Shown piece by piece: positions 8,062-59,262 of a DNA stretch of 64,000 nt. The DNA comes from Microgenomates group bacterium (lineage in GTDB: Bacteria; Patescibacteriota; Microgenomatia; UBA10105; UBA927): the NCBI GenBank assembly GCA_049287205.1, contig JBAQFJ010000001.1:575041-639040 (forward strand), given 5' to 3'. The position numbers and the translations under genes were made by a program. The notes below the pieces were generated by a model. It was not told the origin of the DNA, did not search any database, and saw only the letters and a list, made by a program, of their open reading frames with translations. Each line of letters begins with the position of its first letter. Position 1 is the stretch's first letter.

Positions 8062-8070
8062 AAAAAATAT

Positions 8071-9189: not shown

Positions 9190-9977
9190 CCTACATTAAC
9201 CCGAAAGTTTAATTCAGGATCGAAGCGCCATTTCCGTTTATTTGCATTGTCGTAATAATGACGAATCCGAAGGCGATAAAACACCGCCAACGTATCTTGC
9301 ATCATATTCCATACCGTCACCAATATTTTTTTTAGGGTAATTGAAGACGTCGCGACAGCAAAATTCAGTTCAACAGGTGCTTCATGGATTTTTGTGTATC
9401 CGAGGCGATTTGCAACTGCCAGTATCTCGATATCAAATGCAAATTGCTTAACAAGGAGTCGTGGTAGTACATCTTCAAGAAGCCTCCGTTTATACAATTT
9501 CATCCCCACTTGGGAATCTCTGACATGAATGCCGAATAACAAATGAATCACACGCTGATATCCCCATGAAAGAATACGGCGATAGGTAGGATATTCCACT
9601 TTCGAATCAGGATGCCTCTTGCTCCCAATAACAGCATCAGCGTCCTGGAAATCAAACTGTGCCAACATTGGAAGCAGGGCTTTTGCAGACAAATCGCCCC
9701 CTGCATCCATGAACCCTATGACATCCCCTGACGCATGGGCAAATCCAAACCGAACTGCATACCCTTTTCCATGATTGGTCGGGTATCCAACCAATTTCAC
9801 CCGCATATCTTTAATCTTTTTTACTTCCTGATCACTTTTATCAAAATATCCATCAAGCACGGGAACAATTTCAAAAGAAATATTTGCTGATTCGAGGACT
9901 TGCATAATCGTCTCGATGTCGTGCTTTATTGTTTTTTCCTGTTTATATACAGGAATGATAAGGCTAAATAATTTCAT
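9186..9977 (-). CDS. GT2 family glycosyltransferase
   Basis: FSLIIPVYKQEKTI...VPVLDGYFD, FMDAGGD motifs; 263 aa; 4-nt overlaps with both neighbours. Confidence 0.8.
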   Translation of the reverse strand: MKLFSLIIPVYKQEKTIKHDIETIMQVLESANISFEIVPVLDGYFDKSDQEVKKIKDMRVKLVGYPTNHGKGYAVRFGFAHASGDVIGFMDAGGDLSAKALLPMLAQFDFQDADAVIGSKRHPDSKVEYPTYRRILSWGYQRVIHLLFGIHVRDSQVGMKLYKRRLLEDVLPRLLVKQFAFDIEILAVANRLGYTKIHEAPVELNFAVATSSITLKKILVTVWNMMQDTLAVFYRLRIRHYYDNANKRKWRFDPELNFRVNVG

Positions 9978-11233
9978 ATGGTGCTCTTTTTATTATGTAG
10001 ATAATACGCTCCAAGACCCAACACAAGCAAGACAGAAATACTAATATTAATATAGATGACTTCCTCTATACTCTCGTGAAAAATTGAGATACCGATAATT
10101 TGTACCAGCGAACAGATGACAGGGATTATCCAAATTTTCGTCTTCCCCGTTGCCAAAAAAGTGACAGTGAACATGTTTCCGATGGAATACAGTACAAGAA
10201 AAATACCAAATATGCCGAGAAGTGAAGCGCCTCCTACATATGAAGCGCCAAACAACATTTTAATAATAAGGCTAGGAAACAAAAAATAAAGAATCGTAAT
10301 TCCTGATGATATGACAGTGACGCTTATTAATCCCATTGTAATGAGTTTGCTTGTATTTTCACCTTTCGCAGTTCGCTCTGACAAGACTGGATAGAATACC
10401 GATGCGAGAACCGAAGATGCGTAAAAAATAATCTTTCCAAGTACCGCAAGCGATGCATACACTCCGGCATCAATTGCAGTAAAATAGTGACGTACTAAGA
10501 TCATGTCTGTAGAATATATTGATGTCATACCAAGTGTAACAAGTAATGTTGGAATTGCGTATCGAAAGGCTTCACGTTTGGTAAGCTTCATCGGTAACAA
10601 TGGAGCGGTAAAAAGAAATCTAAGTGGGAAAAAATTTAATATGTATATAACGATTCCGCTGACTAGTGTCGCAATAAGTACTCCCATCACTCCGAATTGA
10701 ATAGCTGAAATACTCAGCGGTAATTTTAAAATAATTGCGCCGGCCCCAAGAATGCTTACCCATAAAAATTTCTGATACCCCTGTAAAACACTAGACATGA
10801 TAACTGTGAGTAATGAAAAAATAAAAATAACATATACGATGATAAACATGAGGGGAGATTTAATATTTAGATATGCCGATACTATTGGTGAAACCGCAAT
10901 GATAATTGGCAACAAACCGATGCAGAAAATCATGGCCGCCTTTGTGACTTTTGAAAACAACGTTTTTGTCTGACCAACTTCCCCTTTTGCTTTAAAACCT
11001 GAAATAAATTTCACTAAAACAAGAGAACCCACATTTAAAGGAACAGAAAAGATATAAAAAATAGAAAGAAGTGAAGATAACTCTCCATATCCGACAGGGC
11101 CTAATAACCGGCCCATTAATAAATGGTAAACGTATGCAGCCACGTTGGCTGACATAGAACCCACAAACATAATCATACTGTCTCTCGCCAGAGAGTGTGA
11201 TGTTATTTTCTGCATCAGGCTTTTAATTTTCAT
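9974..11233 (-). CDS. oligosaccharide/polysaccharide flippase (Wzx-like, MOP superfamily)
   Basis: 419 aa with about 12 evenly spaced hydrophobic helices and the N-terminal pattern of polysaccharide biosynthesis/flippase proteins (MIMFVGSMSANVAAYVYHLLMGRLLGPVGYGE). Confidence 0.65.
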   Translation of the reverse strand: MKIKSLMQKITSHSLARDSMIMFVGSMSANVAAYVYHLLMGRLLGPVGYGELSSLLSIFYIFSVPLNVGSLVLVKFISGFKAKGEVGQTKTLFSKVTKAAMIFCIGLLPIIIAVSPIVSAYLNIKSPLMFIIVYVIFIFSLLTVIMSSVLQGYQKFLWVSILGAGAIILKLPLSISAIQFGVMGVLIATLVSGIVIYILNFFPLRFLFTAPLLPMKLTKREAFRYAIPTLLVTLGMTSIYSTDMILVRHYFTAIDAGVYASLAVLGKIIFYASSVLASVFYPVLSERTAKGENTSKLITMGLISVTVISSGITILYFLFPSLIIKMLFGASYVGGASLLGIFGIFLVLYSIGNMFTVTFLATGKTKIWIIPVICSLVQIIGISIFHESIEEVIYINISISVLLVLGLGAYYLHNKKSTI

Positions 11234-11283: not shown

Positions 11284-11964
11284 TTAAAAACGGTATTTAA
11301 TAAGTGTCCAAAATGCGATAATACCATCTCTCCACGTCAGTTTTTTCCCTTCAGAAAACTTTCTGCCGTAATAGGAAATTGGCACTTCATATATTTGATA
11401 TCCTTTTTTTAACACCTTCGCCGTTATTTCCGGTTCCATGTCAAATCGCTTCGATTGTACTGTAATTCCTGAAAGTACTTCCTTCCGAAACGCTTTAAAC
11501 CCGGTTTCCAAATCTGTAATATTTGCGTTATACAATATATTGTTTACCAATGTGACAAATTTATTCCCCTGCGCATAGACAAACATCGTTGACAAATGCG
11601 GTCCTAAAAACCGGGAACCGTATACAATGTCAACTTGTTTGTTTTCAAACGGGGCAAGAAGCACCAAATAGTCTTTTGGATCATATTCCAAATCCGCATC
11701 CTGGAAAAGAATATAATCGCCCTTGGCTTTTGTAAGTCCAATGGTTACAGCGCTTCCCTTTCCTTCATTTTTCTGTTTGTATACGACCGTTACTTTTTTC
11801 TCCCAAGCAACAAGTTTCTTTTTCGTTCCGTCGGTTGATCCGTCATCCACAACGATAACCTGCTTGTTCCAATCAGGCAACTGCACCTCAGTCACACGAT
11901 GAAGTATTTCATCAATGGTATGAACCTCGTTATAGACAGGAATAATAATAGATACTTTCTTCAT
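11284..11964 (-). CDS. GT2 glycosyltransferase, DPM1/GtrB-like (polyprenol-phosphate sugar synthase-like)
   Basis: From internal ATG at 11964: MKKVSIIIPVYNEVHTIDEIL...VVDDGSTDGT...QDADLEYDP. The longer ORF-track form (to 12201) would overlap the upstream gene by 240 nt. The short form gives a 4-nt ATGA junction. Confidence 0.8.
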   Translation of the reverse strand: MKKVSIIIPVYNEVHTIDEILHRVTEVQLPDWNKQVIVVDDGSTDGTKKKLVAWEKKVTVVYKQKNEGKGSAVTIGLTKAKGDYILFQDADLEYDPKDYLVLLAPFENKQVDIVYGSRFLGPHLSTMFVYAQGNKFVTLVNNILYNANITDLETGFKAFRKEVLSGITVQSKRFDMEPEITAKVLKKGYQIYEVPISYYGRKFSEGKKLTWRDGIIAFWTLIKYRF

Positions 11965-13055
11965 GCGATAAACCAGCCCCTCAGAAACAGAGCTGTAGCC
12001 ATTATCTCCAATATCGTACTTCCGAGCAAGAGCGATATCTTGATTTTTTTTGATGGAATTGAACCTAGAATAATAAATAAGGGTACTGCTGCCAAAATAT
12101 ACCGAGGCATCGATGAAAATGTGCCGGTAAGTGTAGGAATCGTGAGAACCACAAGACAGTATAGAAGTGCCGCCAGTGAAATCCGTTTTCTCCCAAGCCA
12201 CAATGCTACATACGAAATACCGGTCATAACAAATTCAAGCACGGTCACGAGATAGGACATGACAGTCGGCTGCATATATGCGGTGACTAACATTTTTAAA
12301 TATCGCCACACCACTTGCGGAGGGGAAATGAGTGCACTCCCGCTTCTGTTTGCACCAAAGGCAGACTGTACATGCATAAAAAGGAATGGGTCATTTTGCG
12401 TTGCGTTTAAAAAATACATATACCAAAACAATCCGATAGGCATAATGAGAAACCCAAGAATATCAACAATACGAATGTTCTTTGGTTTGGACCCAATATA
12501 TTCAATCAATGCATAGAGAGCCAGACAAATACCGATAATCCGGATCGCGCTTGCTACAGCTATCACAACGCCTGCCCACAAAAGCTGTTTTTTGGAAACG
12601 AAATGCATAACAAGTACCACGCACAAAAAAAATAGACCTTCGGTATACACAGCCCGAAAGAAAAAACTCGTCGGGAATGCAAGAAGAAATACTGTGGTGA
12701 ATTTTGCAAGCCTCTGCGATTTCTTCGCAAGGAGTGCATAAAGTATCATGAGCCCAATCAAAAATGAGATAAGAGAGATTCCAACGCCAATATATTCATA
12801 AGGTAACGGAAGTATCTGATGAAACGCGCGCATAAGCAGTGGATAGACTGGAAAAAACGCATATGCATACTGATAATACCCCGATTCAGCTATTTTTACA
12901 TAATGCACCCCGTCAAAATTCCCCCATGGAGAAACACCAAAATAACCGGTCCGAATAGGAATAAGATATGAAACCTTTTCTATGAGCTGCAAGGTAACAC
13001 CCCAGACTGCAAACGCAAGAAGAACAAACTTATTTTTTTGCCAAAATTGTTTCAT
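11961..13055 (-). CDS. polytopic membrane mannosyltransferase-like protein resembling the PIG-V/Gpi18 (GT76) family
   Basis: From ATG at 13055 (MKQFWQKNKF...). The loop motif GNFDGVHYVKIAESGYYQYAYAFFPVYPLL closely resembles the D-x-x-H-[FY]-x-x-IA-x-x-GY...FAFFPxxP signature I recall for PIG-V mannosyltransferases. About 9 helices. Confidence 0.5.
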   Translation of the reverse strand: MKQFWQKNKFVLLAFAVWGVTLQLIEKVSYLIPIRTGYFGVSPWGNFDGVHYVKIAESGYYQYAYAFFPVYPLLMRAFHQILPLPYEYIGVGISLISFLIGLMILYALLAKKSQRLAKFTTVFLLAFPTSFFFRAVYTEGLFFLCVVLVMHFVSKKQLLWAGVVIAVASAIRIIGICLALYALIEYIGSKPKNIRIVDILGFLIMPIGLFWYMYFLNATQNDPFLFMHVQSAFGANRSGSALISPPQVVWRYLKMLVTAYMQPTVMSYLVTVLEFVMTGISYVALWLGRKRISLAALLYCLVVLTIPTLTGTFSSMPRYILAAVPLFIILGSIPSKKIKISLLLGSTILEIMATALFLRGWFIA

Positions 13056-14085
13056 ATACAGCAACTGTTTCGTGAGCAGTTTTTTCCCAACTAAATGTTT
13101 TTGCCCAAGCAATACTATCCATATGCATCTTTTTTTTGGCTGTCGGTGACAATGTAAACATACGAATAATAGTTTCCGCCATACCTTGCACATTGCCGGC
13201 ATCCATTCTCAATGAGGGCCCTGCAATCTCACTAAGACTTGAGTTATCTGCAACGACAACGGGACAGCCGCATACCATTGCCTCCAAGACCGGCAGTCCG
13301 AATCCCTCATAAAAGGACGGCTCTACTAAACAGGTAGCCATCGAATACAACCCGACTAATTCTTCCTGACTGACAAAACCTGTCATCGTGACATGATCTT
13401 CAAGATGCAAATCATGGATACATTGTTCGATTTTTTGTGTTTCCTGAAGTTGACTGTTTTTAAATGCTCCCCCAACTAGTACTAAGTGAGTATTTTTCTT
13501 TTTTTGAAGAACGAGTGCGAATGCGGATAACAACCCAAGCACATTCTTATTCCAATTCACATCGCCGACAAATAACATAAAATTTGCAGGCAATTGATAT
13601 TTTTCCTTGATTACCTGTTCCAATTGTTTACTCTGTTTGACTTCATATCCTGGGGTCGCGGCAGAATACACCGCATGGATTTTACTTTCAGGTATTCGCA
13701 CAATGCGTTCAACGTCTTTTTTTGAACATTTTGAGACAGTAATAATGCCTTCGACTCGACGAAGCGCGATCTTTTGCATGTTCCACTTCACTCTTCCCCT
13801 GATTCCTGCGGGGAATTGTTCAGGAAACACCAATGGGATCAGGTCATGAACGGTTACGACAGTCGGAATTGTTTTTTCCCATGGGAGCGTCAAAAAAAAC
13901 GGGTCGAAATAGGGATAATGCACTATTTCTGCAGTATCGGGTATTTTTTCTCCTCGAGTAAAAAAACTATACGAATGTTTAGATTCATACTGCTGTAACG
14001 CATCAATAAGATTTTTGGTGTATACACCCACTCCACGCATGGCGTGTCCTGAGGAAAGTGGTGTTGTGTCTATCGCAATATTCAT
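13030..14085 (-). CDS. GT4 family glycosyltransferase
   Basis: EGFGLPVLEAMVCGCPVVVADNSSLSEIAG (E-x7-E) and the upstream GGAFKNSQ Rossmann-like segment. Confidence 0.85.
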   Translation of the reverse strand: MNIAIDTTPLSSGHAMRGVGVYTKNLIDALQQYESKHSYSFFTRGEKIPDTAEIVHYPYFDPFFLTLPWEKTIPTVVTVHDLIPLVFPEQFPAGIRGRVKWNMQKIALRRVEGIITVSKCSKKDVERIVRIPESKIHAVYSAATPGYEVKQSKQLEQVIKEKYQLPANFMLFVGDVNWNKNVLGLLSAFALVLQKKKNTHLVLVGGAFKNSQLQETQKIEQCIHDLHLEDHVTMTGFVSQEELVGLYSMATCLVEPSFYEGFGLPVLEAMVCGCPVVVADNSSLSEIAGPSLRMDAGNVQGMAETIIRMFTLSPTAKKKMHMDSIAWAKTFSWEKTAHETVAVYETILAKK

Positions 14086-15683
14086 TGGTGTTTTCTCCTA
14101 TACCAAAGTATACCCAATATAGCAAAAATCACCAAACTAGCCACTGAAACCGCGTCAGCGAGCGTACGAATGAGGGTTTCCTGCATAACAAGACGCACGA
14201 TATGTGTGCCTTTTGGAACGCGTACATCAATCGTGCCTTGGCTTTGATAGTCAATTGGTGTCGATACCCCGTCAACATATGCAGTCCATCCCGGAAAATA
14301 GAGTATGTGAAACCGAATGACCGTATCACTACCGAGTGACACTGTATACTGACGATCAAGATATTTCTCATTCGGGCCATCCACAATAATAGGATTCCCT
14401 TCCGTATCCGTTGCAATTGTCAGCGACTTTGTTTCTTTCCAAGGCGTCCAGATGGTCGACAAACTGTTACCCATGGACGATGTACCGTCGGTAAAATTTG
14501 ATCGGGATGCATAATATGCATCGTTTCTCGATTCATACTGTGCCCCCCGCGTGTAAGGAAATGCAAAGAGCACCGAACAACAGACGAGGAGTATTGGAAT
14601 CCACAGTTTTTTTGATTGTTCGGTGGTAAAGGCGGAAGCCCATGCAGTAAACGGGATCATAAGAACCAATAATCGCCATGGATATTGCAAGTACGGCAAT
14701 ACAGGCACATGCTGCCATATCCATACAGATGACGGCAATACAAGATATATGCTTACCGCCATAATCCCAATGACAACAAACAGCTCGCGCTTTTGTTTCG
14801 TAGATGCCTTTTTTAACCGAAAAATTATGTATCCAACCCACAACAAAACTGCAGCCCCTATCTGCAAGGACATTTTATTCCCGCTCGATCCAACACCTGA
14901 AAATTCAGTTCCCCATGAAGGAATAAGAAGTTCAGGAATGCTTGCAAAGTGATCAATGACACTCACTGTGTTTAACCCCACCATATAGTGTGACTCGGCA
15001 ACCGCAGGTAACCAAAACCATGCTGACAATCCAATTCCCAATACAAGGCACGCAAGCCATTTGGCGCTCAGTCGATACAACACATACAATCCCAATATCG
15101 GAAGAAAGATGATGGATAATCCGTTATGCGAAAGCAGTAATAAACACGCAGCAAGCGTCAAAAGGAAACCAGAACGTTTTTCAATACTAAAAAAACCTAA
15201 GAATAGAAATGTAATTGCCCATATTTCCCCTATAGATCCTCGTACGTACAGCTCGACAAACCAATACGGCACAAATGCAGCGGCAATCGTGCCAAAACTC
15301 GCGCTTTTTTGTGACCATTTCGTTTTTAACCACAAAAAACAAAATACCAGTGCGGATAAATACGCAAAAGCGCTTGTATATTTAAACGCAGTGACGAATT
15401 CAACACCAAAAACATGGAATAACGCTGCCATATAATTTGGAAACGGATACATAAACTGAAACAATGGTAAACCATATCCGCTATTTATTGTCGGCGCCCA
15501 ACGTGGGAACAGATACCCTTGGCTCAGCATGCGATAAAACTCCATAAACCGGATTATGTGATATTCCCCGTCATGTGTCGGAAGAAAACGGTTGCCTAAA
15601 AAAGGAAGTATTGCGACAACACCAAGTACCAAAACAACAAGTAATCCAAGGAAATTCAATATTTTTTTATTTTTTATGTTCAT
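14082..15683 (-). CDS. short YfhO-like polytopic membrane protein (GT-C) with C-terminal beta-sandwich module
   Basis: 533 aa. N-terminal THDGEYHIIRFMEFYRMLSQGYLFPRWAPTINSGYGLPLFQFMYP motif is shared with 19254..20912, 44064..45740 and 45742..47295. C-terminal YFPGWTAYVDGVSTPIDY...VPKGTHIVRLV module is shared with the long YfhO-like proteins. Confidence 0.6.
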   Translation of the reverse strand: MNIKNKKILNFLGLLVVLVLGVVAILPFLGNRFLPTHDGEYHIIRFMEFYRMLSQGYLFPRWAPTINSGYGLPLFQFMYPFPNYMAALFHVFGVEFVTAFKYTSAFAYLSALVFCFLWLKTKWSQKSASFGTIAAAFVPYWFVELYVRGSIGEIWAITFLFLGFFSIEKRSGFLLTLAACLLLLSHNGLSIIFLPILGLYVLYRLSAKWLACLVLGIGLSAWFWLPAVAESHYMVGLNTVSVIDHFASIPELLIPSWGTEFSGVGSSGNKMSLQIGAAVLLWVGYIIFRLKKASTKQKRELFVVIGIMAVSIYLVLPSSVWIWQHVPVLPYLQYPWRLLVLMIPFTAWASAFTTEQSKKLWIPILLVCCSVLFAFPYTRGAQYESRNDAYYASRSNFTDGTSSMGNSLSTIWTPWKETKSLTIATDTEGNPIIVDGPNEKYLDRQYTVSLGSDTVIRFHILYFPGWTAYVDGVSTPIDYQSQGTIDVRVPKGTHIVRLVMQETLIRTLADAVSVASLVIFAILGILWYRRKHQ

Positions 15684-16788
15684 GATATTTTTTCATACCG
15701 TACACAGCTACGTATAACCCCAATGGAATAATCGTCAAAAGTGTCCTTGCCATGGGTCCAAATCCGCCGTACTGCCCCATGTATATATATGGAAGATGCC
15801 TCAGCTCTAATGCAAATGATAAACAAAGCGTCCAACCGATAAGAAACGAGTGTTTCTTTATGTCCAAAAAAGCTGCGATACTAATCAACCACACAGCGTA
15901 CCATGGATATAATTCTTCACGGAGCGGCGCAAGAACAAAAAAAACAAAAGACATGAGTCCGTACGCATACAGTAACAGCCTTTCCCAAGAAATATTTTTC
16001 AATACCATAATTGGCGCGAGGACAAGTGTTGGAACTTTTGTACACCATGAGAAAATAAGAAATAATAAACCGAATAGCTTCTTTTTTTCGTGCCAAAGAT
16101 ATACCCCGAGCATCGCAAACAGCATCATCATGATATCATTATGCCCCGACACCAATACTTCAGTGAGAATCAGCGGATTCAAAGCAAAAAATATCACATT
16201 TTTCTTTGACTTAGTAACACTATAGATGAAAAAAATGAAAAGGAGATATACGAGGGCGTTTAACAATTTAAAAGAAATTATTGTTCTCCAAATATTTCCA
16301 CCGCCTAACGCGTTCGGTAACGCAGTTATTCCAATCCACAAAGGACCATAGAGAGCGACTTTGTTAGCAGCCCGCGTAAATGCGAGATATGGTTCATTTG
16401 GAATTTCAATTGGCATCACGATGTACGGATTCTCATGATGCGTGAACGCGACTTTTGCAGTCGCCATATAATTAAACAGATCATAACTTAATGCGGAAAA
16501 AGAACACACAAGTATGATAACTGTTGTTCCTATCACAATCCATAATTTTTTCCATGAAACGAATAGTTTTTCTGATTGAAAAAAAGCAAATACATACCAC
16601 CCTGTTAACCCCAAAAGAATAAGAAAAAATATGAGTGCAGCCAGTGGCCGATCAAAATATACTATATGACGCAGTGGCGCAAACCATGTAAGAAGCAACG
16701 TATTGTTTGTGAGTGACAGATTTAAATCAATAAATCCATACGAAAAAATGGTAAAGCTTATAAGAATAATAAAATACAGTATTATCAT
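15667..16788 (-). CDS. polytopic membrane protein, 'HxNPY' paralogue family (putative GT-C)
   Basis: 373 aa, about 10 helices. YDLFNYMATAKVAFTHHENPYIVMPIE motif is shared with 48868..50046 (YDFFNYLFTAKTVLVYHKNPYVVTPLQ). Confidence 0.5.
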   Translation of the reverse strand: MIILYFIILISFTIFSYGFIDLNLSLTNNTLLLTWFAPLRHIVYFDRPLAALIFFLILLGLTGWYVFAFFQSEKLFVSWKKLWIVIGTTVIILVCSFSALSYDLFNYMATAKVAFTHHENPYIVMPIEIPNEPYLAFTRAANKVALYGPLWIGITALPNALGGGNIWRTIISFKLLNALVYLLFIFFIYSVTKSKKNVIFFALNPLILTEVLVSGHNDIMMMLFAMLGVYLWHEKKKLFGLLFLIFSWCTKVPTLVLAPIMVLKNISWERLLLYAYGLMSFVFFVLAPLREELYPWYAVWLISIAAFLDIKKHSFLIGWTLCLSFALELRHLPYIYMGQYGGFGPMARTLLTIIPLGLYVAVYGMKKYHEHKK

Positions 16789-17930
16789 GTTCGTTTTATA
16801 TGATGCCTCTTATATACAACCTGTTTTGCAATCGAAAAAATAGCCCATATCATCATGCTATAACAAATCGGCAAAAAAGGCAGAAGATACCGAGCAGATG
16901 CTTGTCCTAGGGATATAAAAACACTGTATACAATGATGCAAAGAGCAGATATCTGTATAGCTGGATCCAGTTTCTTAACGATTGAACTTGCCGCGTACAA
17001 ACTTGTCAATATTCCGCTACCAATGACAATCGGCCAGGAAATAACCCAGCTTGCATCCTGAATAATCGGGATCTCTCCCCACCAAACATACCATTTGTTC
17101 AAAAAAATAAGCGGCCATATGGTAAACAGATGATTTAATTTTCCGTTTTGATACCAATACAGCCATTTTTGCACTTTCAACACCTCAATTACCGAATAGC
17201 CATCCATAAACATGCGAATGTATACCAATAGCGTCGTTATAAGGATTATTCCTCCTCCGCCTACGACATACCAAAAATATTTTGGCTTTTTTAAAAGAAT
17301 ATATAATGTAATCACCGCGGTAAACACTATCCCTATCAGCCAAACTTTCGTCATCATGGCACATCCAAGGAACAGATATGACAATAAAAGATAGAACGGT
17401 TTATCTTTTTTCAGTGCAAATGACGCAGTGATAACTGCATACAAAATAAAGGTGATAAAAAACATATCCAGTAACGGCGAAAATGAAAGTTGGTCCACAA
17501 ATAATCGTTCGAATGACGCGATTAAAACTGCGCCTAACGACATAATTCTATTATTTGTCATGAGTAGCACAAGCAAATAGATTCCGAAAAGCATGAATAC
17601 AAAAAAGAATGCGATACTTATGTGTTCATTGTTTGCTATCAAAATAGAAAGTCCAATGAGATATTTCCCGAGCGGCGGTTGAGTAGGTTCAACAATTATG
17701 GGGCTGGCGCCTTTGAGATATGCACCGGCCGCATATGCGTACACAATTTCATCAGGAATCCACGACTTCCATTCTTTCATTGTGTATTGTGATTGACCAT
17801 ATACATTTTTTAGACTTTCATATCGCATCCAGTAATCTGGTGCATATGCATCTCTATGCTGATATATCGTCCACCCTACACGGAAACATATGAGAATAAA
17901 AAGAAGAATAGTAATTACTTTTTTTGCCAT
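16785..17930 (-). CDS. short PMT/GT39-like membrane glycosyltransferase
   Basis: Loop-1 motif WIPDEIVYAYAAGAYLKGASPIIVEPTQPPLGKYLIGLS matches the DE...(H)PPLgK signature of protein O-mannosyltransferase/ArnT-family GT-C enzymes. 381 aa, no MIR domain. Confidence 0.55.
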   Translation of the reverse strand: MAKKVITILLFILICFRVGWTIYQHRDAYAPDYWMRYESLKNVYGQSQYTMKEWKSWIPDEIVYAYAAGAYLKGASPIIVEPTQPPLGKYLIGLSILIANNEHISIAFFFVFMLFGIYLLVLLMTNNRIMSLGAVLIASFERLFVDQLSFSPLLDMFFITFILYAVITASFALKKDKPFYLLLSYLFLGCAMMTKVWLIGIVFTAVITLYILLKKPKYFWYVVGGGGIILITTLLVYIRMFMDGYSVIEVLKVQKWLYWYQNGKLNHLFTIWPLIFLNKWYVWWGEIPIIQDASWVISWPIVIGSGILTSLYAASSIVKKLDPAIQISALCIIVYSVFISLGQASARYLLPFLPICYSMMIWAIFSIAKQVVYKRHHIKRT

Positions 17931-18502
17931 GGAGCTGTTTTAGAACCAACGTATGTATACTGCTCTTTAGTGTCTTGGAGGGCATTCAGTAGAGTATTTC
18001 TGATTTGAATAGATGTATCTAACATTACGCCAATGGATAAATCTGTTGCCACTGCTTTTTCAGGTATCCATTGAAATTCGTTGGGCAACCATTGCTTCAT
18101 ATACTCAATGGTCGATACATGCGTCTTCATCGCTTCAACTACAATTGTCTTCTGAACGCTCATATCTTTTCCCTCACGCATTCCTTTTTCAATAAGCGAG
18201 GTGATGTCAACAAGCGCGGCATCAGACCGGGTAATAGCGTCTGCCGCAAGCAAATACTGTTTATATTCAAACAATGTTTTTGCCTCAACCAAATATTTAT
18301 CTGAAAGGCTGAGGTGGTACTTTATTTGTGCAATCGTTCCCCAATTCCAGTAATTTTTTAGCGTATCCATCATTCGTGACACGCGATAGATTTTGTTCCC
18401 CGGCATAAAGGATGGGTATGGAAGAACGTATTCTGCATACACCTGAGGAACAAAATACATAAAGCTAACAAACAGCAACAAATACAAACTTATTTTTTTC
18501 AT
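17915..18502 (-). CDS. secreted hypothetical protein (signal peptide, alpha-helical)
   Basis: MKKISLYLLLFVSFMYFVPQVYA signal-like N-terminus; 195 aa; overlaps both neighbours (16 and 4 nt). Confidence 0.5.
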   Translation of the reverse strand: MKKISLYLLLFVSFMYFVPQVYAEYVLPYPSFMPGNKIYRVSRMMDTLKNYWNWGTIAQIKYHLSLSDKYLVEAKTLFEYKQYLLAADAITRSDAALVDITSLIEKGMREGKDMSVQKTIVVEAMKTHVSTIEYMKQWLPNEFQWIPEKAVATDLSIGVMLDTSIQIRNTLLNALQDTKEQYTYVGSKTAPWQKK

Positions 18503-19272
18503 ATCATATTTCTATACTTTCTATATGCAATTGGGAAGTGCAGAGCTGACCAATACGCAAACACCAGTCCATACCATCCGTCAACAAACCCTTTATGTCT
18601 CACAAACAGAAGAAAAAACATTTTCACGGGCTGCCAAATCATATAGGAAAACCAAGTCCTCAAGTTTTTAGAAATAGCACGCTCACGCATAAACATTGCG
18701 GTTAAACTGGTGTATGAATCAGCTTTTTTCCAATAATCTTTGGATGTTCTATACGAATAATGCAACATCGGCTCTTTTATGTAGCCGACAACCCCCTCAA
18801 CAGAAATTTGTTCATGCACATCTTTACAGGGTAACTTCGCTTTTCCATTTTTCACAAGACGGATAACATAATCAGGATATTGGCCGCCTTTTTTCATGAA
18901 GTGACCCCAAAAATTATTTCGTCGAGGAATATAATACCCGTTTATTTTTTTATCATCTGTTTCCACTATCTGCAAAATTTCTTTTTTGAGCGCACTTGTA
19001 ATCACTTCGTCAGCATCAAGCTGTAAAATCCATGCACCTTTGCTGGCATCCATCGCAATTTGTTTGTTGATATGAAAAATAGCAGGATTGTCGGCGTGAA
19101 TAATATGCTTTGTATATTTTTCAGCGATTGTAACGGTATTATCTGTTGAACCACCGTCCACCACGACAATTTCATCAACCCATGGCGTAACGGATGTTAG
19201 ACACGCATCAAGATTCTTTCCTTCGTTATAGACTGCTATTGCTACAGATAATTTCATGCTCTTTTTTTCCAT
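18499..19272 (-). CDS. GT2 family glycosyltransferase
   Basis: MKLSVAIAVYNEGKNLDACLTSV...VVVDGGSTDNT...LDADEV. The likely start is the internal ATG at 19257, giving a 4-nt overlap with the upstream gene. Confidence 0.8.
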   Translation of the reverse strand: MEKKSMKLSVAIAVYNEGKNLDACLTSVTPWVDEIVVVDGGSTDNTVTIAEKYTKHIIHADNPAIFHINKQIAMDASKGAWILQLDADEVITSALKKEILQIVETDDKKINGYYIPRRNNFWGHFMKKGGQYPDYVIRLVKNGKAKLPCKDVHEQISVEGVVGYIKEPMLHYSYRTSKDYWKKADSYTSLTAMFMRERAISKNLRTWFSYMIWQPVKMFFLLFVRHKGFVDGWYGLVFAYWSALHFPIAYRKYRNMI

Positions 19273-20912
19273 AGTTGTACTCCAAGCGCTGTTACTAGCA
19301 AAATCCCGATCGTTCCCAACGTGATCATATCAGCTACATATCGCAGTTTGGTATCTTCAAAAACAATACGTACAGTATGTGTTCCCTCCGTTACCCTAAA
19401 GGTGATGAGTCCACGATAGGTAGGATCCTGATATTGTATACCTGTTTGTACCCCATCAACATAGACTTTCCAACCGGGGAAATAGAGTGTATTTTCTACC
19501 AGTCTTGCCGGCTCTTTGGCTTCCACACTGTACTCTCTGGTTGTGGTGGTTCGGTTACCATGAGTTATGATAACTGCACCTTCAGCAATCTCAAGAGGCG
19601 ATGTTGGTCGGTGTTCCATAAACCGAACAGACCAAATGGGACTGCTTTCTCCTGTGTCTGTTGTTGATTCATATATACCGCTATAAAAATTTTCTGATTT
19701 TTGACTGTATGCTTTCGGTTTCCACATATAGACTGTTGAAACTACCGCGATAATGCAAAATACGCTGACAACATAATTACCAACCAGCCGTTTATTTAGT
19801 TTTCTTCTCTCAATAATTGACGCAATACTGACTCCACCCAGAATTGCAGACAAAAATACCGAAACAGAAAGAAATCTCCATGGAAACTGAAATTTCTGAA
19901 GTAAAGATATGTGTTGCCAAATACCAGATGACGCTGAAGTCATCATGAATAGGGAACCAAAAAATAACACAACTAGTCCGATGATAAACACCCGAAGTGA
20001 TTTTTCCTTCATTTTCCACATCACCGCGAGTGATACAAATATTCCAAGCCACTGTGCAATACCAACGGACTTTGTTAGTTCATTTCCCTGACCATACTTC
20101 CACGCGGAATAGAAAAACCAGCGTATTGGAACAAACCTGCTTCCGTATTCATTTGAGGTCACAATATCCCTAAGTGTATATTTCCCTTCAAAAAACGCAG
20201 GCATCCAAAAAAATGCAGCAATGCCGAATCCCAACAAAAAAAAGTAGACTGAAGGGATAACAAAGCTCATAGATTTTTTACTTTGGGTGAAAAATAGATA
20301 AATCCAATACAACCCGATAACCGGCAAAAACATGATCGCAACAGCGTTATGAGACAGGATTAATGCACCAACGGATAGTGTCAATCCTATTCCATGAACT
20401 AGTTGCCTATTTTTTGAGTATTCGGCAGTGTTCGATAACAAAAACAAAAAATAACAAATCAGCGGCGGAAACACAAATGCCATATGTTCACCTATTGCTC
20501 CACGCACATACAAATCCACAAAACGATACGGTGCAAATCCATACAGCATTGCCGCGATAACACCTGCACGCTTCCCAAATGCGGTTTTTACCCACAAGTA
20601 CATGGCGAGTATGCTCGCAGTGAATGCAAAAGCAAATACCATTTTGGTTGCATCAACATACCCGAGTCCCATCCAATGAAAGAGTGATCCGACATAGGAA
20701 GACATCGGATACAAAAACATGAGTATCGGGTGTCCATATCCCCAATTCAAATTACTCGCCCACCGAGGAATTACATTCCCTTCAGAAAGGCTAGCAAAAA
20801 AACTTGCGATACGCGCCACATGATCCGGCCCGTCATGGGTAACAGGCAACCCTTCAGGAAGAAGCCCAATTAGTGGAAGCATGCTAATAATTAGTAAAAT
20901 AATCCAGTTCAT
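19254..20912 (-). CDS. short YfhO-like polytopic membrane protein (GT-C), paralogue of 14082..15683
   Basis: VTHDGPDHVARIASFFASLSEGNVIPRWASNLNWGYGHPILMFLYP N-terminal motif; C-terminal LYFPGWKVYVDGVQTGIQY...VTEGTHTVRIVF module; 552 aa. Confidence 0.6.
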   Translation of the reverse strand: MNWIILLIISMLPLIGLLPEGLPVTHDGPDHVARIASFFASLSEGNVIPRWASNLNWGYGHPILMFLYPMSSYVGSLFHWMGLGYVDATKMVFAFAFTASILAMYLWVKTAFGKRAGVIAAMLYGFAPYRFVDLYVRGAIGEHMAFVFPPLICYFLFLLSNTAEYSKNRQLVHGIGLTLSVGALILSHNAVAIMFLPVIGLYWIYLFFTQSKKSMSFVIPSVYFFLLGFGIAAFFWMPAFFEGKYTLRDIVTSNEYGSRFVPIRWFFYSAWKYGQGNELTKSVGIAQWLGIFVSLAVMWKMKEKSLRVFIIGLVVLFFGSLFMMTSASSGIWQHISLLQKFQFPWRFLSVSVFLSAILGGVSIASIIERRKLNKRLVGNYVVSVFCIIAVVSTVYMWKPKAYSQKSENFYSGIYESTTDTGESSPIWSVRFMEHRPTSPLEIAEGAVIITHGNRTTTTREYSVEAKEPARLVENTLYFPGWKVYVDGVQTGIQYQDPTYRGLITFRVTEGTHTVRIVFEDTKLRYVADMITLGTIGILLVTALGVQLWKKRA

Positions 20913-20917
20913 ACTAT

Positions 20918-22552
20918 TTATTTTGCGATATGTATCGCATCACGTCCATCAAGATACTTGATAATACCAAGAGAGCCGTCAGGAATCTCACTCGGAGTAC
21001 CAATATATAATGTGCTCCCGTCTTTTATTTCCTTATCCCATTGAATAGGCCTGAAATCATACACATCAAAATGATTTTTCACTTCCCTAAATCCACCTGA
21101 TGCAGTTCCCCCTTCAGATTGATATTTTTTTGGGTCATATTTTGTATAGAAAAGAAAAAACATATGTGGTTGTTCCAACTTTGTCGAGACAACAACTTTT
21201 GTATATGCATTCTTATTTGTTTCAGCATACTCCACTGCCTGTTGGTATCCATATTGCCAATAATCAGAATATTCTCTATCCATGTGCACAAAATACATAT
21301 GCAAATAATAGACGATATTACACAACGCGAGAAAAAGAATAATAGGAAGTGTTAATTTTTTCCAACGCTTCCCATTTCTTATCCATACTATATATTCATA
21401 TATTCCAAATGCGGTTAGTATTTGAAATACCGGCAAAAATACTAACGTTCGAATTGCATGTGGGAGCCCTGTAGTAACAGAAGCAGGAATCGGAGCGAGT
21501 AAAATCCAAACAAATAAAAATACCGCGAGTTTTCCACCACGTTTTGCAATACTCACAATCCCCCACAAAAGAAATGGGAGTTCAATAAGATACAGTAAAC
21601 CCATATCTGGTGCATGATGACGAGGAAGATCCCCCTGCAAAAACAACCATTTTAGTGAAAAGTGAGAAAGATATCCATCAACCACAGTTTTGACCCATAC
21701 AATTCGTCTGTTATCAAACACCATGCCGAGTGTATCACCCCTTGCTATATCATCTTCCAATAATCTCACACTTGATGATAGAAGCGCTGTTTGATCCGAC
21801 AGGGAACTTGTTCCTTTGAGTCGCATCAAAGTTGTCGGATTCGTAAACATCACAATCATTGGAATGACGGTGAGTAGTCCAATTGCAATTGCTAGATATA
21901 CTGATTTCTTGTTTGCCCAGATTTCTTTCCAATCAAGTATGGTTAACAGTAACAAAAACATCGGTGCGAATATCCGCTCGCTATGATATGCGTATAGCGA
22001 TAACCCAAACAAAAGTGCACTCATCCACAATGTTTTTTTATTCCGGAGGAAAAAAAATGCGGCCCAAATGTTAAGTGTTACTCCTGTATTTGCCTCAAAC
22101 GCGATACGGGAAAACTGTATATGCCATGGTGAAATAGCAAGCAAGAATGCCGCAATAAGCGGAATACTTTCGATTATTTTTTTGTCTTTACTCCACTTCC
22201 TCAACAGCTCACGCACAAACAAAAATGTTCCGATAACAGCGAGTATCCCCATCACTGCTGACGGCAATCGTGTTGACCAAACAGATAATCCAAAAATCGC
22301 AACCGAAGGAATAGTCATGTACATGTATAGAGGCGGCTTGTAGTCATCAAATGACCGGAGAGACAATGGAAATGGTGTTCCGTATTCATCTTTCCCTGTC
22401 AGTAGCATGGAATATGCGTTATATCCGAGCGCCGCTTCATCCCAGTCGGGACTTGGCGGAGTGAGACCTAGATGCCAAAGCCGTACTGCTGCTGCAATGA
22501 GGACAATCAACACTACTAGTATCCATGTTCGTTTCATATTATTTTGCGTCAA
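20918..22552 (-). CDS. ArnT/PMT-like (GT39/GT83-type) polytopic membrane glycosyltransferase
   Basis: PDWDEAALGYNAYSMLLTGKDEYGTPFPL motif (DE + GKDE.G) as in ArnT-family aminoarabinose/mannosyl transferases. 544 aa with C-terminal soluble domain. Tandem paralogue of 22539..24185. Confidence 0.6.
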   Translation of the reverse strand: MTQNNMKRTWILVVLIVLIAAAVRLWHLGLTPPSPDWDEAALGYNAYSMLLTGKDEYGTPFPLSLRSFDDYKPPLYMYMTIPSVAIFGLSVWSTRLPSAVMGILAVIGTFLFVRELLRKWSKDKKIIESIPLIAAFLLAISPWHIQFSRIAFEANTGVTLNIWAAFFFLRNKKTLWMSALLFGLSLYAYHSERIFAPMFLLLLTILDWKEIWANKKSVYLAIAIGLLTVIPMIVMFTNPTTLMRLKGTSSLSDQTALLSSSVRLLEDDIARGDTLGMVFDNRRIVWVKTVVDGYLSHFSLKWLFLQGDLPRHHAPDMGLLYLIELPFLLWGIVSIAKRGGKLAVFLFVWILLAPIPASVTTGLPHAIRTLVFLPVFQILTAFGIYEYIVWIRNGKRWKKLTLPIILFLALCNIVYYLHMYFVHMDREYSDYWQYGYQQAVEYAETNKNAYTKVVVSTKLEQPHMFFLFYTKYDPKKYQSEGGTASGGFREVKNHFDVYDFRPIQWDKEIKDGSTLYIGTPSEIPDGSLGIIKYLDGRDAIHIAK

Positions 22553-24185
22553 ACAGCACTAACACATCATTTCCATTAAGAAGCGTTATTTTTTGGATAA
22601 CATGCGCACCTTCCGGTACCCAGCTGGGATCTCCAATATATAACGCTCCGGTCTCAAGCGAACCGCTTGGCATGGCATCGATAAACCTGTATTTAGAAAA
22701 TCCGTATACATGATAAAAACCTGCAGTATCAAATGTAGATTCTTTTACTTTCAAATATTCGTTTGGATCAAATTTTGTATAGAACAGTGTGTACATATAC
22801 GGTCTGCCTATGGTTGAAGAAACATACATCTTGTCGTAGTTTACCTCTATTTTTTGAGCCGCAGTGATTGCTTCGGCGTATCCGTACTGCCATTCGCCGG
22901 AATAGACTCCTGCATAATGCGCATAATAATTATGCAAATAATATCCAATACTAAATATATATACACCAACAAATACAATTCCAATTCCAATTGATGCAAT
23001 TTTTTTATATTTTGCAACCCATCCAAAGACTACTGTTATTCCGTATGCCACTATTATCTGCCACACAGGAAGAGAATTTAGGATTCGTAATGCATGTGGC
23101 GTTTCACGAGCGGTTGCAGCAGGAACAATCGCAAGAATAATCCATATAAGGAGAATCCATGCAATCTGCGGAGCTGTCACAAATAATGCAATCAATCCAA
23201 CTGCAAGAAGTGGGGCTTCCATCATATACATCTGTCCCACAACTTGTGTAGAGAACTTCGGATTCCCGTCGCCTGTCACGAATAAAAATGACGGTTGCAG
23301 ATTATCTGCAAAATGCCTGAGATAGGACAATGCGAACCCAATTCGTCTGTTATGCAGTACGCGTCCGACTATCGAATTATTGTCATATGCCATCCGCTCG
23401 TTTGAGGCAACAACAACGGAAGCGTCTGTAAATATATTCACTTCCTCAAAACGAAGTCTTGCTTCAGAAGACACAAGGTGCGGCAAAATAGGTACCATCG
23501 CTATGCACGCAATAACGGCGCCAATCAGAAACTGTTTCCAACTAACTTTAATCGATTTCCAAAAAACTACACAAAGAACCAAACCGAAAAGCGGCGCAAA
23601 ATACCTGGCGCTATTAAAAGTGTATACGGCGGCAACAAAAGGGAGCCATGCAACAATCCACATTTTTGGTTTTCCCACGGCAACAAGAATCAGATATACG
23701 CCAAGCACTACAAAAAATAATGCAATATTTGCTTCAAATCCGGCGCGCGAAAGATTGATATGCCACGGAGAGACAGCTAATACAGTGGATGAAAGAAGTG
23801 CAACCCATTGAATAGTCTCTTTCCCTAATTTCGACATGCCAAACAATTTGATCACTAAAAAGAATGTCGCAAGAACAGTGAGAGAACCAAACAACGCGGA
23901 AGGAAATCTGACGGCAAAATCAGTTAATCCAAACGCCGCAATGGATGGGACAGTGAGATAAATTGCGAGGGGTGGTTTATAATCCCCATATGCAACAAAT
24001 GTATCGATAGGCAAGAATTTCCCATGCTCATCTTTACCAGTTTTCAAAATGGAATATGCGTTATATCCAATTGATACCTCATCCCACGATAATGCAGGAG
24101 GTATAGAAGAAATTTTGTTCACCCGCAAAAACAATGCGCCCAGTGTGATGCAAATAAGTGCAATGATCATTCCTGCTTTTTTCAT
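22539..24185 (-). CDS. ArnT/PMT-like polytopic membrane glycosyltransferase (tandem paralogue)
   Basis: LSWDEVSIGYNAYSILKTGKDEHGKFLPI motif; 548 aa; same domain layout as 20918..22552. Confidence 0.6.
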   Translation of the reverse strand: MKKAGMIIALICITLGALFLRVNKISSIPPALSWDEVSIGYNAYSILKTGKDEHGKFLPIDTFVAYGDYKPPLAIYLTVPSIAAFGLTDFAVRFPSALFGSLTVLATFFLVIKLFGMSKLGKETIQWVALLSSTVLAVSPWHINLSRAGFEANIALFFVVLGVYLILVAVGKPKMWIVAWLPFVAAVYTFNSARYFAPLFGLVLCVVFWKSIKVSWKQFLIGAVIACIAMVPILPHLVSSEARLRFEEVNIFTDASVVVASNERMAYDNNSIVGRVLHNRRIGFALSYLRHFADNLQPSFLFVTGDGNPKFSTQVVGQMYMMEAPLLAVGLIALFVTAPQIAWILLIWIILAIVPAATARETPHALRILNSLPVWQIIVAYGITVVFGWVAKYKKIASIGIGIVFVGVYIFSIGYYLHNYYAHYAGVYSGEWQYGYAEAITAAQKIEVNYDKMYVSSTIGRPYMYTLFYTKFDPNEYLKVKESTFDTAGFYHVYGFSKYRFIDAMPSGSLETGALYIGDPSWVPEGAHVIQKITLLNGNDVLVLFDAK

Positions 24186-52355: not shown

Positions 52356-53528
52356 TTAGGTTCGCTTTTTCCAAATCACGCGAGAATACATAAAATAATT
52401 CCAAACAAGAAGCAATGAGGTACCTATCAAAAAATAAACAAAATAATACGTTTCTCCGAAAAGACGTGTTGCAAGTTCAATTGTCCCTGTTTGGATAACA
52501 ATAACACCAAACAACGATGTTCCGTAAAATTGGATAAGTTTCCCTAAATATTTCCCAACGGAATCAATCTTCTGATCCTTAAATGTCCAAATGTTATTAA
52601 AATTAAAATTAGAAAATATGGCAACGGCTGCACCGATAAGGTTTGCGATCGAGGCGGATAATCCGACAAGTTCCCGAAAAACAATAAGCAGCACCGCATT
52701 CAAGACAAATCCAATTCCTCCTACGACAAGGAATTTCCCAAACGATCCGTATCTGAGTTCGTGAATGAGTGAACCTGCAACATAGAGAAGTACATTTTTA
52801 ATATATTCCCCCGGCGCTATTTTTGAATGACCATACAGTCTGTCTGTAAAATGAATCGGCACTTCCACAATCTTCGCCCCGCTCGAAATAGCCTTATGTA
52901 AAAATGCTATCTGAAACACATACCCGCTGTACTCCTTCATCTCACCGGCAAACAGTTCATAATATTTTTTCTTATACGCGCGATACCCGCCTGTCCAATC
53001 ATGTGTTTTGGGAAAACGCAAGCCATAACGAACGATGGCATTACCCAATACACTAAAAATTTTCCGATGCAATCCCCAATTGTCAGGAATTGATCCACCT
53101 TTGATATATCTGCTTCCCACGACAAAATCCGCTCCGTCATCAATTGCCGCCATAAACAGTGGAACACGTGTCGGATCATGAGACAAATCACAGTCCATTT
53201 GGATAACAATTTCAGCTTTCAATTCTTCGACTGCATACGTCATCCCGCGAAGAAGCGCCCTTCCTAGTCCTTCTTTTTTTCCTGTGATGATATACGTGTC
53301 TTTGTGTGTTTTTATATATTCATTCACCACTGCTCCTGTACCGTCAGGTGACGAATCATCTACGATGACATAGGTGATTGCGTGATTTTTAATCTTTTTT
53401 GCTTCAACATGTAACGCATCAAGGAGCGTCACAATATTTTCGCGCTCGTTATACGTTGGGAGAATGATGACCGTTTTCATAGAAAACACCTTTTGGTCTA
53501 CCTCGACTATCAGACCCGTTCTCGCCAA
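52356..53528 (-). CDS. GT2 polyprenol-phosphate sugar synthase fused to C-terminal GtrA-like membrane domain
   Basis: N-terminal VIILPTYNERENIVTLLDAL...VDDSSPDGT...QMDCDLSHDP (DPM1-like). C-terminal 120 aa has four helices with FLVVGGIGFVLNAVLLIVF...NFNFNNIWTFKD (GtrA-family pattern). The likely start is ATG at 53480. Confidence 0.75.
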   Translation of the reverse strand: MARTGLIVEVDQKVFSMKTVIILPTYNERENIVTLLDALHVEAKKIKNHAITYVIVDDSSPDGTGAVVNEYIKTHKDTYIITGKKEGLGRALLRGMTYAVEELKAEIVIQMDCDLSHDPTRVPLFMAAIDDGADFVVGSRYIKGGSIPDNWGLHRKIFSVLGNAIVRYGLRFPKTHDWTGGYRAYKKKYYELFAGEMKEYSGYVFQIAFLHKAISSGAKIVEVPIHFTDRLYGHSKIAPGEYIKNVLLYVAGSLIHELRYGSFGKFLVVGGIGFVLNAVLLIVFRELVGLSASIANLIGAAVAIFSNFNFNNIWTFKDQKIDSVGKYLGKLIQFYGTSLFGVIVIQTGTIELATRLFGETYYFVYFLIGTSLLLVWNYFMYSRVIWKKRT

Positions 53529-54469: not shown

Positions 54470-54478
54470 ACAAATTTT

Positions 54479-54535
54479 CCTCCTTAAGTACTTGAATTTA
54501 GGTATATTATACCGTAAACATTTATAAAACGATAT
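54479..54535 (-). promoter_or_regulatory. RBS (GGAGG at 54479..54483, minus strand) plus candidate sigma70-like -10 (TATAAT, about 54503..54508 minus strand) in the 65-nt ugd-SDR spacer
   Basis: Minus-strand reading: ...TTTACGGTATAATATACC...CTTAAGGAGGAAAATTTGT-ATG. It is one of only a few spacers over 40 nt in the array. Confidence 0.4.
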
Positions 54536-55833: not shown

Positions 55834-55855
55834 ACACTAAATCCTCCTAAAAAAT

Positions 55856-57756: not shown

Positions 57757-57762
57757 ATGTTT

Positions 57763-59013: not shown

Positions 59014-59262
59014 TTATGTCCACAGTATTGTTAAAAGCAATACAACTGCAACTGCACCAACAAGACAATATTCTATCACAACTTTTGGATGAAGATCTTC
59101 TTCAAGGCTGTGATAGATAATTCCCCAAATGACATAAGAGATTGCTGTGGCAACCCCGATGTACATTTGCATCACCTTATCGTTTGCAGCTCCCCAAAAC
59201 GTCCAAACACCCGTTACCAGGATAATCAGAAGTACCAGATAATTCACATGCGTTAATTTCAT
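59014..59262 (-). CDS. small two-helix membrane protein (hypothetical)
   Basis: 82 aa with two hydrophobic segments; 4-nt overlap with the upstream CAP-domain gene. Confidence 0.45.
   Translation of the reverse strand: MKLTHVNYLVLLIILVTGVWTFWGAANDKVMQMYIGVATAISYVIWGIIYHSLEEDLHPKVVIEYCLVGAVAVVLLLTILWT

Follow-up and report, generated by a model that had tools for sequence, protein, structure and literature searches.

The present analysis concerns a window of 64,000 nucleotides (the whole stretch of DNA that was analyzed) from a Microgenomates group bacterium and, within it, a minus-strand gene whose product, hereafter the target, is a compact membrane protein of 381 amino acids (aa). We are highly confident that the target is an active glycosyltransferase of structural class C (GT-C) acting outside the membrane. 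The role that we favor, with a probability of roughly 0.55, is that of an extracytoplasmic GT-C that depends on a polyprenyl-phosphate sugar and adds a lineage-specific sugar to an envelope glycan, which would be its acceptor. The features that bear on this are listed below, where TM denotes a transmembrane helix and the conservation counts, here and throughout, refer to an alignment of 70 homologues 32-72% identical to the target.

16785..17930, minus strand: target gene, a compact GT-C glycosyltransferase of 381 aa (open reading frame, PMT_2 match, homologues, AlphaFold2 model and GT-C fold matches).
17646..17762, minus strand: loop-1 catalytic signature WIPDE...PPLGKYLIGLS, W57-S95 (translation, conservation, alignment to Pmt1 and ArnT).
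17748-17753, minus strand: codons of D60/E61 (translation).
17466..17468, minus strand: D155, at the outer end of TM4, D in 68/70, aligned with ArnT D158.
17346..17348, minus strand: K195 of the MTK motif, in the short outer loop 3, K in 68/70, aligned with ArnT K203.
17031..17222, minus strand: outer loop 4, residues 237-300, aromatic-rich, between TM7 and TM8 (conservation).
16860..16892, minus strand: R347-Y357 (RYLLPFLPICY), in the loop before the last TM, candidate lipid-phosphate site.

The target open reading frame (ORF) begins with ATG. Its start overlaps by 16 nt the stop of the upstream ORF, which encodes a DUF5667-like protein, and its stop shares an ATGA junction with the start of the downstream ORF. 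An identical protein is already present in NCBI as 'MAG: glycosyltransferase family 39 protein [Microgenomates group bacterium]' (MAG, metagenome-assembled genome), on a 1.02-Mb contig. Residues 57-95 of the target (WIPDEIVYAYAAGAYLKGASPIIVEPTQPPLGKYLIGLS; window 17646-17762) contain the loop-1 motif, in which D60 is found in 70/70 homologues and E61 in 66/70. The PPLGK segment is similarly constant: P85 in 67/70, P86 in 70/70, L87 in 66/70, G88 in 69/70 and Lys or Arg at position 89 in 70/70. Residues 50-105 were locally aligned to loop 1 of protein O-mannosyltransferases (PMTs) of solved structure, with 500 shuffles as reference. The DE of the target fell on D77/E78 of Pmt1 and its PPLGK on PPL(G/A)K, with one 3-residue gap, and the z scores were 4.4 (ScPmt1), 7.5 (ScPmt2) and 4.7 (CtPmt4), the observed score being reached by 0/500 shuffles. 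In the segment PPLGKYLIGLS, 9 of 11 positions are identical to the PPLGKMLVGLS of ScPmt2. When the same loop was aligned locally to ArnT, the sole match was W.PDE..YA (z 0.3-2.9). A preliminary description, made from the sequence alone, had reported the ORF, its length and this motif, and the observation was accurate, because the motif is conserved in homologues and aligns with loop 1 of PMTs. It had also counted four other GT-C proteins with a DE motif in the window; such proteins do exist, but the number was too low, since DE occurs soon after TM1 in at least six other multi-TM ORFs (starts at 6724, 20918, 22539, 31065, 47310 and 50808). Four multi-TM ORFs of the window have DD instead.

The sole Pfam match of the target is PMT_2 (PF13231), over residues 84-231, with 38.3 bits against a cut-off of 26.1, and thus above the gathering threshold, so that a hidden Markov model (HMM) of the PMT clan does recognize the protein. 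In the same scan, PF02366 (PMT), PMT_4TMC (PF16192) and MIR gave no match at E<=1, and the NCBIfam scan of the target gave none either. In the 70 relatives (E<=0.01 for PMT_2), PMT_2 was detected in 32/70 and PF02366 in 2/70. The target is shorter than Pmt and devoid of MIR, as had been described. It must be noted that the GT39 label and the PMT_2 membership were already known, and that the target is a further compact representative of a known enzyme type. Searches of PDB sequences with the target, with the 70-sequence profile and with the neighbouring PF02366-type protein were uninformative.

A word-indexed search retrieved 228 homologues of the target, nearly all of 370-400 aa, and a profile search of 1.84 billion cluster representatives yielded 347 at E<=1e-30, 703 at E<=1e-10 and 1643 at E<=1e-3. 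A genome survey in which one genome per species was scanned provided 69 target loci, essentially all in Patescibacteria/Microgenomates (Gottesman-, Levy-, Roizman- and Woesebacteria). The family is thus restricted to Microgenomates, within the Candidate Phyla Radiation (CPR). Many MAG records with a CPR-type gene cassette of the kind described below (L006, L008, L011, L012, L018-L021 and others) are titled 'uncultured Gammaproteobacteria bacterium', many of them third-party annotations (TPA), and one cassette-bearing MAG record is titled 'Pacearchaeota archaeon'; these titles are probably mislabelled taxonomy in the deposited assemblies.

An AlphaFold2 model of the target, built on the family alignment, reached a predicted local distance difference test score (pLDDT) of 94.7 and a predicted TM-score (pTM) of 0.93. 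When it was compared with the PDB by Foldseek, the top matches were all GT-C enzymes, with a probability of 1.00 to STT3, CtPmt4, ArnT and PglB, as follows (TMq, query-normalised TM-score):

STT3 (7OCI_F): E 4.9e-4, TMq 0.54.
CtPmt4 (9I5K): E 7.7e-4, TMq 0.60.
ArnT (5F15): E 1.1e-3, TMq 0.50.
PglB: E 3e-3, TMq 0.54.
ALG3: E 2e-2, TMq 0.53.

As modelled, the fold is that of a class-A GT-C, about equally distant from oligosaccharyltransferases (OST/STT3), PMT/Pmt4 and ArnT. The class-A features of the target comprise this superposable fold (TMq 0.50-0.60), the invariant acid of loop 1 and aligned basic and aromatic residues. Consequently, the proposal of a GT-C enzyme with a PMT/ArnT-type catalytic loop holds on the PMT_2 match, the fold and the loop-1 alignment. 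From the helices of the model and hydropathy, about 10 TMs are predicted, arranged as TM1-7, a large outer loop and three more TMs, with both termini cytoplasmic and without a soluble domain. With the N-terminus inside, the short inner loops have a family mean of 11.0 Lys plus Arg per 33 residues and the short outer ones 3.8 per 45, a positive-inside bias of about 4-fold. Natural fusions of the family carry one extra hydrophobic helix between the target module and an extracytoplasmic domain (residues 389-407 in P0122 and 369-387 in P0231), which fits a cytoplasmic C-terminus of the module. Hence the DE loop, together with D155, K195, the Trp-rich loop (residues 237-297) and R347/Y357, is predicted to face outward and not the cytoplasm.

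Residues were mapped to ArnT by aligning the target profile to E. coli ArnT (hhalign; probability 64%, E 6.7e-5, 272 columns) and by an alignment of E. coli and C. metallidurans ArnT, SEQRES numbers being the author numbers plus 3. Co-linear pairs were D60/E61 with D55/E56, D155 with D158, K195 with K203 and Y357 with Y345; T194-K195 fell on the TK of K203 and P354..Y357 on LPxY345. In ArnT, Pmt1 and Emb proteins the acidic pair of loop 1 forms the active site, ArnT D158 contacts the sugar or the acceptor and has K203 as its salt-bridge partner, ArnT Y345 lies near the phosphate, and OSTs bind the lipid phosphate through a conserved Arg of the loop that precedes a late TM (PMC7801869). In the target family R347 is present in 70/70 and Y357 in 69/70, to be compared with PglB R375, STT3 R404 and ArnT Y345; R347 also aligns with a conserved Arg of the neighbouring PMT_2 family (profile-profile probability 94%).

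Outer loop 4 has invariant Y237, Q254, W272, N278, W280, W283, G285 and W295, and across the family it contains a mean of 15.4 Trp, Tyr or Phe in 61 residues. It lies where the MIR domain sits in PMTs, between TM7 and TM8 (PMC12705809), and its composition makes it a candidate acceptor (glycan) binding site, likely a carbohydrate-binding surface. Between TM1 and the DE pair the target has a conserved insert of about 35 residues with Y33, invariant S47 and Y49, and Q48 in 69/70. Directly before PPL, residue 84 is T in 28, Q in 21 and A in 11 of the 70 sequences.

The genes around the target form a cassette, with the following members:

19254..24185, minus strand: three upstream cassette GT-Cs of 552 aa (orthologues PTPS_related), 544 aa (PMT_2) and 548 aa (PMT, PF02366).
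18499..19272, minus strand: GT2 glycosyltransferase, 257 aa, an upstream partner conserved in most loci.
17915..18502, minus strand: DUF5667-like secreted helical-bundle protein, 195 aa, a core cassette component upstream of the target.
15667..16788, minus strand: 373-aa GT-C downstream of the target, with orthologues matching PF26314 (MptA_B_family).
14082..15683, minus strand: 533-aa GT-C-like membrane protein with a weak YfhO C-terminal match, a cassette member.
13030..14085, minus strand: GT4 glycosyltransferase, with an orthologue directly downstream of the target in >20 Levybacteria-type loci.

The ORFs of all 69 loci were searched with these window neighbours as queries, and four arrangements were distinguished. 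The order PMT(548)-PMT_2(544)-GT-C(552, PTPS_related)-GT2-DUF5667-target-MptA_B-GT-C(533)-GT4 is that of the window and of L001, L002 and L005-L010 (eight loci, two of which, L007 and L010, are slightly rearranged). In >20 Levybacteria-type loci the GT2 gene is followed by about 1 kb (an epimerase in L003) and then by target-GT4. Other loci have MptA_B-target, or a PMT_2-like gene of about 430 aa and then the target, and Gottesmanbacteria have forms of about 690 aa. Some Roizman/Levy-type genomes with the third arrangement carry tandem duplicates of target-family genes (L038 6616-9047, L041 6724-9170 and L048 7998-11053).

The DUF5667 protein has 1489 homologues. Since the target is absent from 6/6 sampled DUF5667 cassettes, which read PMT_2-(PMT_2)-PTPS_related-GT2-DUF5667-MptA_B-GT-C-GT4-GT2(-Wzx), it is an optional insertion in a widespread core cassette. 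Variable glycosyltransferases of polysaccharide loci behave in this manner. The suggestion of the preliminary description that the cluster points to protein O-glycosylation is therefore not supported, as the cassette in which the target is optional is of polysaccharide type and contains GT4, GT2, Wzx and numerous GT-Cs.

Because the target is an optional step in a surface sugar-polymer cluster, decoration of a glycan is likelier than protein mannosylation, and the most likely acceptor would be the glycan of the envelope polymer built by the cassette. The donor is presumed to be a polyprenyl-phosphate sugar because of the rule for this enzyme class and the DPMS/ArnC-like GT2 genes found elsewhere in the window. 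By analogy with ArnT and PMT, this sugar would be made on the cytoplasmic face by such a GT2 and then flipped, and its phosphate would bind near K195, R347 and Y357. D60/E61 of outer loop 1 and D155 could then place the acceptor hydroxyl and activate it, so that the transfer would proceed with inversion, with D60 as the putative key acid. As acceptor we envisage an envelope polymer of the cassette (PMT_2, PTPS_related, GT2, DUF5667, MptA_B, GT-C and GT4, plus Wzx), linked to a lipid or to the wall, which may be held by the 61-residue Trp-rich loop that separates TM7 from TM8. The role of the target would thus be the optional addition of a lineage-specific sugar and not the initiation of protein O-mannosylation.

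Several points weigh against this role for the target. Both donor and acceptor are inferred, and the sequence of loop 1 resembles PMTs more than any of the glycan-acting GT-Cs with which it was compared. Protein O-mannosylation in actinobacteria is also extended by other GT-Cs. The profile match to ArnT is weak, and the phosphate-binding residue before PPL (H105 in ctPmt4, K85 in ArnT) is not conserved in the target family (T/Q/A). Searches of a literature library for the target family, CPR GT-C enzymes, DUF5667 and PMT_2 retrieved nothing relevant.

We consider it unlikely that the target is a true protein O-mannosyl (or O-hexosyl) transferase in minimal form, that is, a GT39-like enzyme acting on Ser/Thr of secreted or envelope proteins, with the Trp-rich loop replacing MIR. 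This explanation retains some weight because the loop-1 similarity is specifically PMT-like: DE and PPLGK stand in loop 1/TM2 as in the GT39 enzymes (yeast Pmt1/Pmt2/Pmt4; PDB 6P25, 9I5K and 9E61) and align with all three (z 4.4-7.5; 9/11 with ScPmt2). In addition, CtPmt4 shows the GT-C fold with the best TMq (0.60), the layout of TM1-7, a large outer loop after TM7 and C-terminal TMs without a C-terminal soluble domain is shared, Lys and Arg of the target may occupy positions comparable to ctPmt4 K244 and R666, the NCBI label is GT39, and the window encodes an anchored Pro/Thr-rich protein (61982-62806). However, the target has 381 aa instead of 750-820 and about 10 TMs instead of 11. Actinobacterial Pmt proteins have about 500-600 aa. 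PF02366 and PMT_4TMC are missing (PF02366 being detected in just 2/70 relatives), as is MIR, at whose position lies the 61-residue Trp-rich loop, which suggests sugar rather than peptide binding. To our knowledge, bacterial PMTs also lack MIR. The His before PPLGK, which in ctPmt4 (H105) binds the phosphate of dolichyl phosphate (PMC12705809), is replaced by T/Q/A in the target family, and DE lies close behind TM1 in both PMT and ArnT, whereas in the target the conserved insert of about 35 residues separates them. STT3 and ArnT are just as close in fold, the genomic setting is a glycan-assembly cassette in which the target is optional and fused or adjacent to other GT-Cs, and the sole Pro/Thr-rich candidate substrate is 44 kb distant. 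In attention to the missing PF02366, the replaced His, the equidistant fold (STT3, Pmt4 and ArnT) and the optional place in a polysaccharide-type cassette, the earlier view of a stripped-down protein O-mannosyltransferase is not supported.

An OST- or ligase-like GT-C would transfer en bloc an undecaprenyl-diphosphate oligosaccharide, built by the adjacent GT4/GT2 enzymes and flipped by Wzx, to protein, peptidoglycan or another polymer. STT3 subunits and PglB are among the top Foldseek matches (GT66 enzymes STT3/PglB/AglB, 4.9e-4 to 3e-3, over the TM core only), the target has the loop-1 Asp and the invariant R347 before the last TM, like PglB R375 and STT3 R404, its gene is closely linked with those of GT4 and GT2 enzymes in an island with Wzx genes, and paralogues are fused to the pedestal MecA_N+PBP_dimer of penicillin-binding proteins (PBPs). 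Nevertheless, we judge this quite improbable, as the target has no C-terminal periplasmic domain and hence no WWDYG-type motif there, its loop 1 is of the PMT/ArnT sequence type, and the presence of several GT2s resembling polyprenyl-monophosphate-sugar synthases accords with donors of the monosaccharide type, of which a monophosphate-linked one is likely.

An enzyme like ArnT (GT83; PDB 5EZM/5F15; the aminoarabinose transferase of lipid A), adding a single sugar to the head group of a membrane lipid or glycolipid, is very improbable in our view, even though the W.PDE..YA motif is shared, D155, K195 and Y357 align with ArnT D158, K203 and Y345 together with the loop-1 pair (D55/E56 in ArnT), the Foldseek E is 1.1e-3, the logic of a polyprenyl-phosphate monosaccharide donor would be the same, and Ugd, a UXS/ArnA-like dehydratase and an ArnC-like GT2-GtrA fusion are encoded in the window. 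Those genes are 35 kb distant, the alignment is weak (probability 64%), and there is no equivalent of ArnT K85 (EKPP), position 84 being variable. ArnT has 13 TMs and a C-terminal periplasmic domain, whereas the target ends after about TM10, and the arn operon contrasts with the GT-C, GT2 and GT4 neighbours of the target, a cassette setting that points to polymers. We know of no lipid A synthesis by CPR bacteria. Finally, a non-catalytic GT-C-like scaffold or pseudoenzyme within a multi-GT-C complex would accord with the missing soluble domain and with the close association seen in fusions to other GT-Cs, but it is hardly credible, given that the residues expected for catalysis or lipid-phosphate binding (D60, E61, D155, K195, R347 and Y357) are invariant or nearly so.

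The best profile-profile match of the target is the neighbouring 544-aa PMT_2 family (20918-22552; probability 94%, E 1.7e-7), aligned over target residues 77-378 and family residues 62-398, including the Arg before the last TM. Members of that family have their DE 12-15 residues behind TM1 and end in a soluble domain of about 145 aa, and the target has neither; an HMM search of the target against it revealed no significant direct similarity. In the alignment with the 548-aa PMT-type family (91%), the DE of the target was opposite the second acidic patch of the family and not its WDE. This stretch was judged unreliable, and therefore the PMT and ArnT alignments were relied on. The possibility that the target is a recent paralogue of another GT-C of the window was rejected, as its profile gave no significant HMM match to the 20 other GT-C-like ORFs there; it is thus a separate family and not a local duplicate.

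The target module also occurs in larger proteins. P0122 and P0135 (564 aa) consist of the module, a TM and DUF5667. At least 13 representatives of about 690 aa, including P0228 and P0231, contain the module, a TM and MecA_N + PBP_dimer, which correspond to the pedestal of a class-B PBP without the transpeptidase domain; they belong to Gottesmanbacteria (loci L059, L061, L063 and L071-L074, at about 8000-10000). In P0145 and P0158 (about 930 aa) a PTPS_related GT-C precedes the module, and in P0127 (747 aa), and likewise in P0177 (about 750 aa), a multi-TM region of about 370 aa that is possibly MptA_B-like does so. The fusions tie the module physically to other components of the cassette and, in one lineage, to a domain of peptidoglycan-synthesis type. 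The pedestal fusions hint at a link to the peptidoglycan machinery.

The multi-GT-C lines of Corynebacterineae (MptA/MptB, PimE and Emb/Aft, for lipomannan, lipoarabinomannan (LAM) and arabinogalactan) are comparable in having serial GT-Cs with polyprenyl-phosphate-sugar synthases, orthologues of the immediate neighbour of the target match MptA_B_family, and cytoplasmic GT4 steps occur in both. The phylum is however unrelated (CPR), and the likeness is one of organization. We tentatively suggest that the 10-TM target could be the free-standing core of a modular Microgenomates GT-C system, used alone or fused, in a multi-GT-C line that builds a peptidoglycan-associated envelope glycopolymer, although we hold this broader view to be doubtful. 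If true, ultra-small bacteria would possess in this line a functional counterpart of the synthesis of LAM/arabinogalactan in mycobacteria. The envelopes of CPR/Patescibacteria are almost unknown, and these organisms rely on surface contact with hosts; the existence of a large conserved cassette of extracytoplasmic GT-Cs implies that the envelope glycan is complex. The target family, compact, modelled with very high confidence and with assignable catalytic residues, offers a tractable entry to the biochemistry and structure of this glycan, and illustrates how small a PMT/ArnT-type enzyme can be. The greater interest lies in the conserved multi-GT-C cassette and the modular fusions rather than in the generically annotated target itself.

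The DUF5667-like protein of the cassette (17915-18502; L076-L080) surpasses the target both in conservation (about 47-60% identity) and in breadth of distribution. It is nearly always encoded between the GT2 and the MptA_B-family GT-C and has invariant YVLPYPS.MPG and DKYL.EAKTL.EY motifs. Its predicted structure is a helical bundle (pLDDT 86.8), for which the structure search found no informative neighbour. We considered that it might supply in trans the periplasmic domain that the target lacks, as two independent fusions (P0122 and P0135) would suggest. This idea was weakened by the far wider distribution of DUF5667, by the 6/6 sampled cassettes without the target and by the absence of DUF5667 from most target loci.

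The whole 64-kb window is a glycosylation island, with nearly all genes on the minus strand except for a YfhO-like gene (27037-29439) and a GT-C-like gene (31065-32810) on the plus strand. It contains about 21 multi-TM GT-C-like ORFs, about 15 of them with Pfam support (PMT_2, PMT, GT87, YfhO or PTPS_related), more than 12 GT2/GT4 genes, a gene for an S-adenosylmethionine-dependent methyltransferase and two Wzx-type flippases (9974-11233 and 41905-43350). A further feature concerns the supply of donors:

52356..53528, minus strand: GT2 fused to a GtrA/DPMS TM domain, candidate polyprenyl-phosphate-sugar synthase.

This fusion could supply donors for the GT-Cs of the island, and three further GT2s have PgfS, ArnC, dolichyl-phosphate hexose transferase or AglJ as best NCBIfam matches. 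The fusion opens a block reminiscent of the Arn pathway (52356-58970), with a UXS/GDP-Man-dehydratase-like gene (53510-54469), UDP-glucose dehydrogenase (Ugd, 54535-55833), RmlD, RmlB, RmlC and RmlA. This block may provide the GT-Cs with polyprenyl-phosphate sugars and dTDP-rhamnose.

At the flank of the island, a membrane-anchored CAP/SCP-domain protein (59259-60269) and an M23 peptidase with a PcsB-like coiled coil (62825-63991) are encoded. The 274-aa protein at 61982-62806, 44 kb from the target, starts with a signal/anchor, contains a Pro/Thr-rich linker (PTVTPTVTPTPAKGPTNTP...) and ends in a TM anchor, and is a plausible substrate of O-glycosylation. Finally, the ORFs 11284-12201 (AglJ/DPMS-like GT2) and 11961-13202 (413 aa, 9 TM, no Pfam match) overlap by about 240 nt, and one of them probably starts further downstream than listed.

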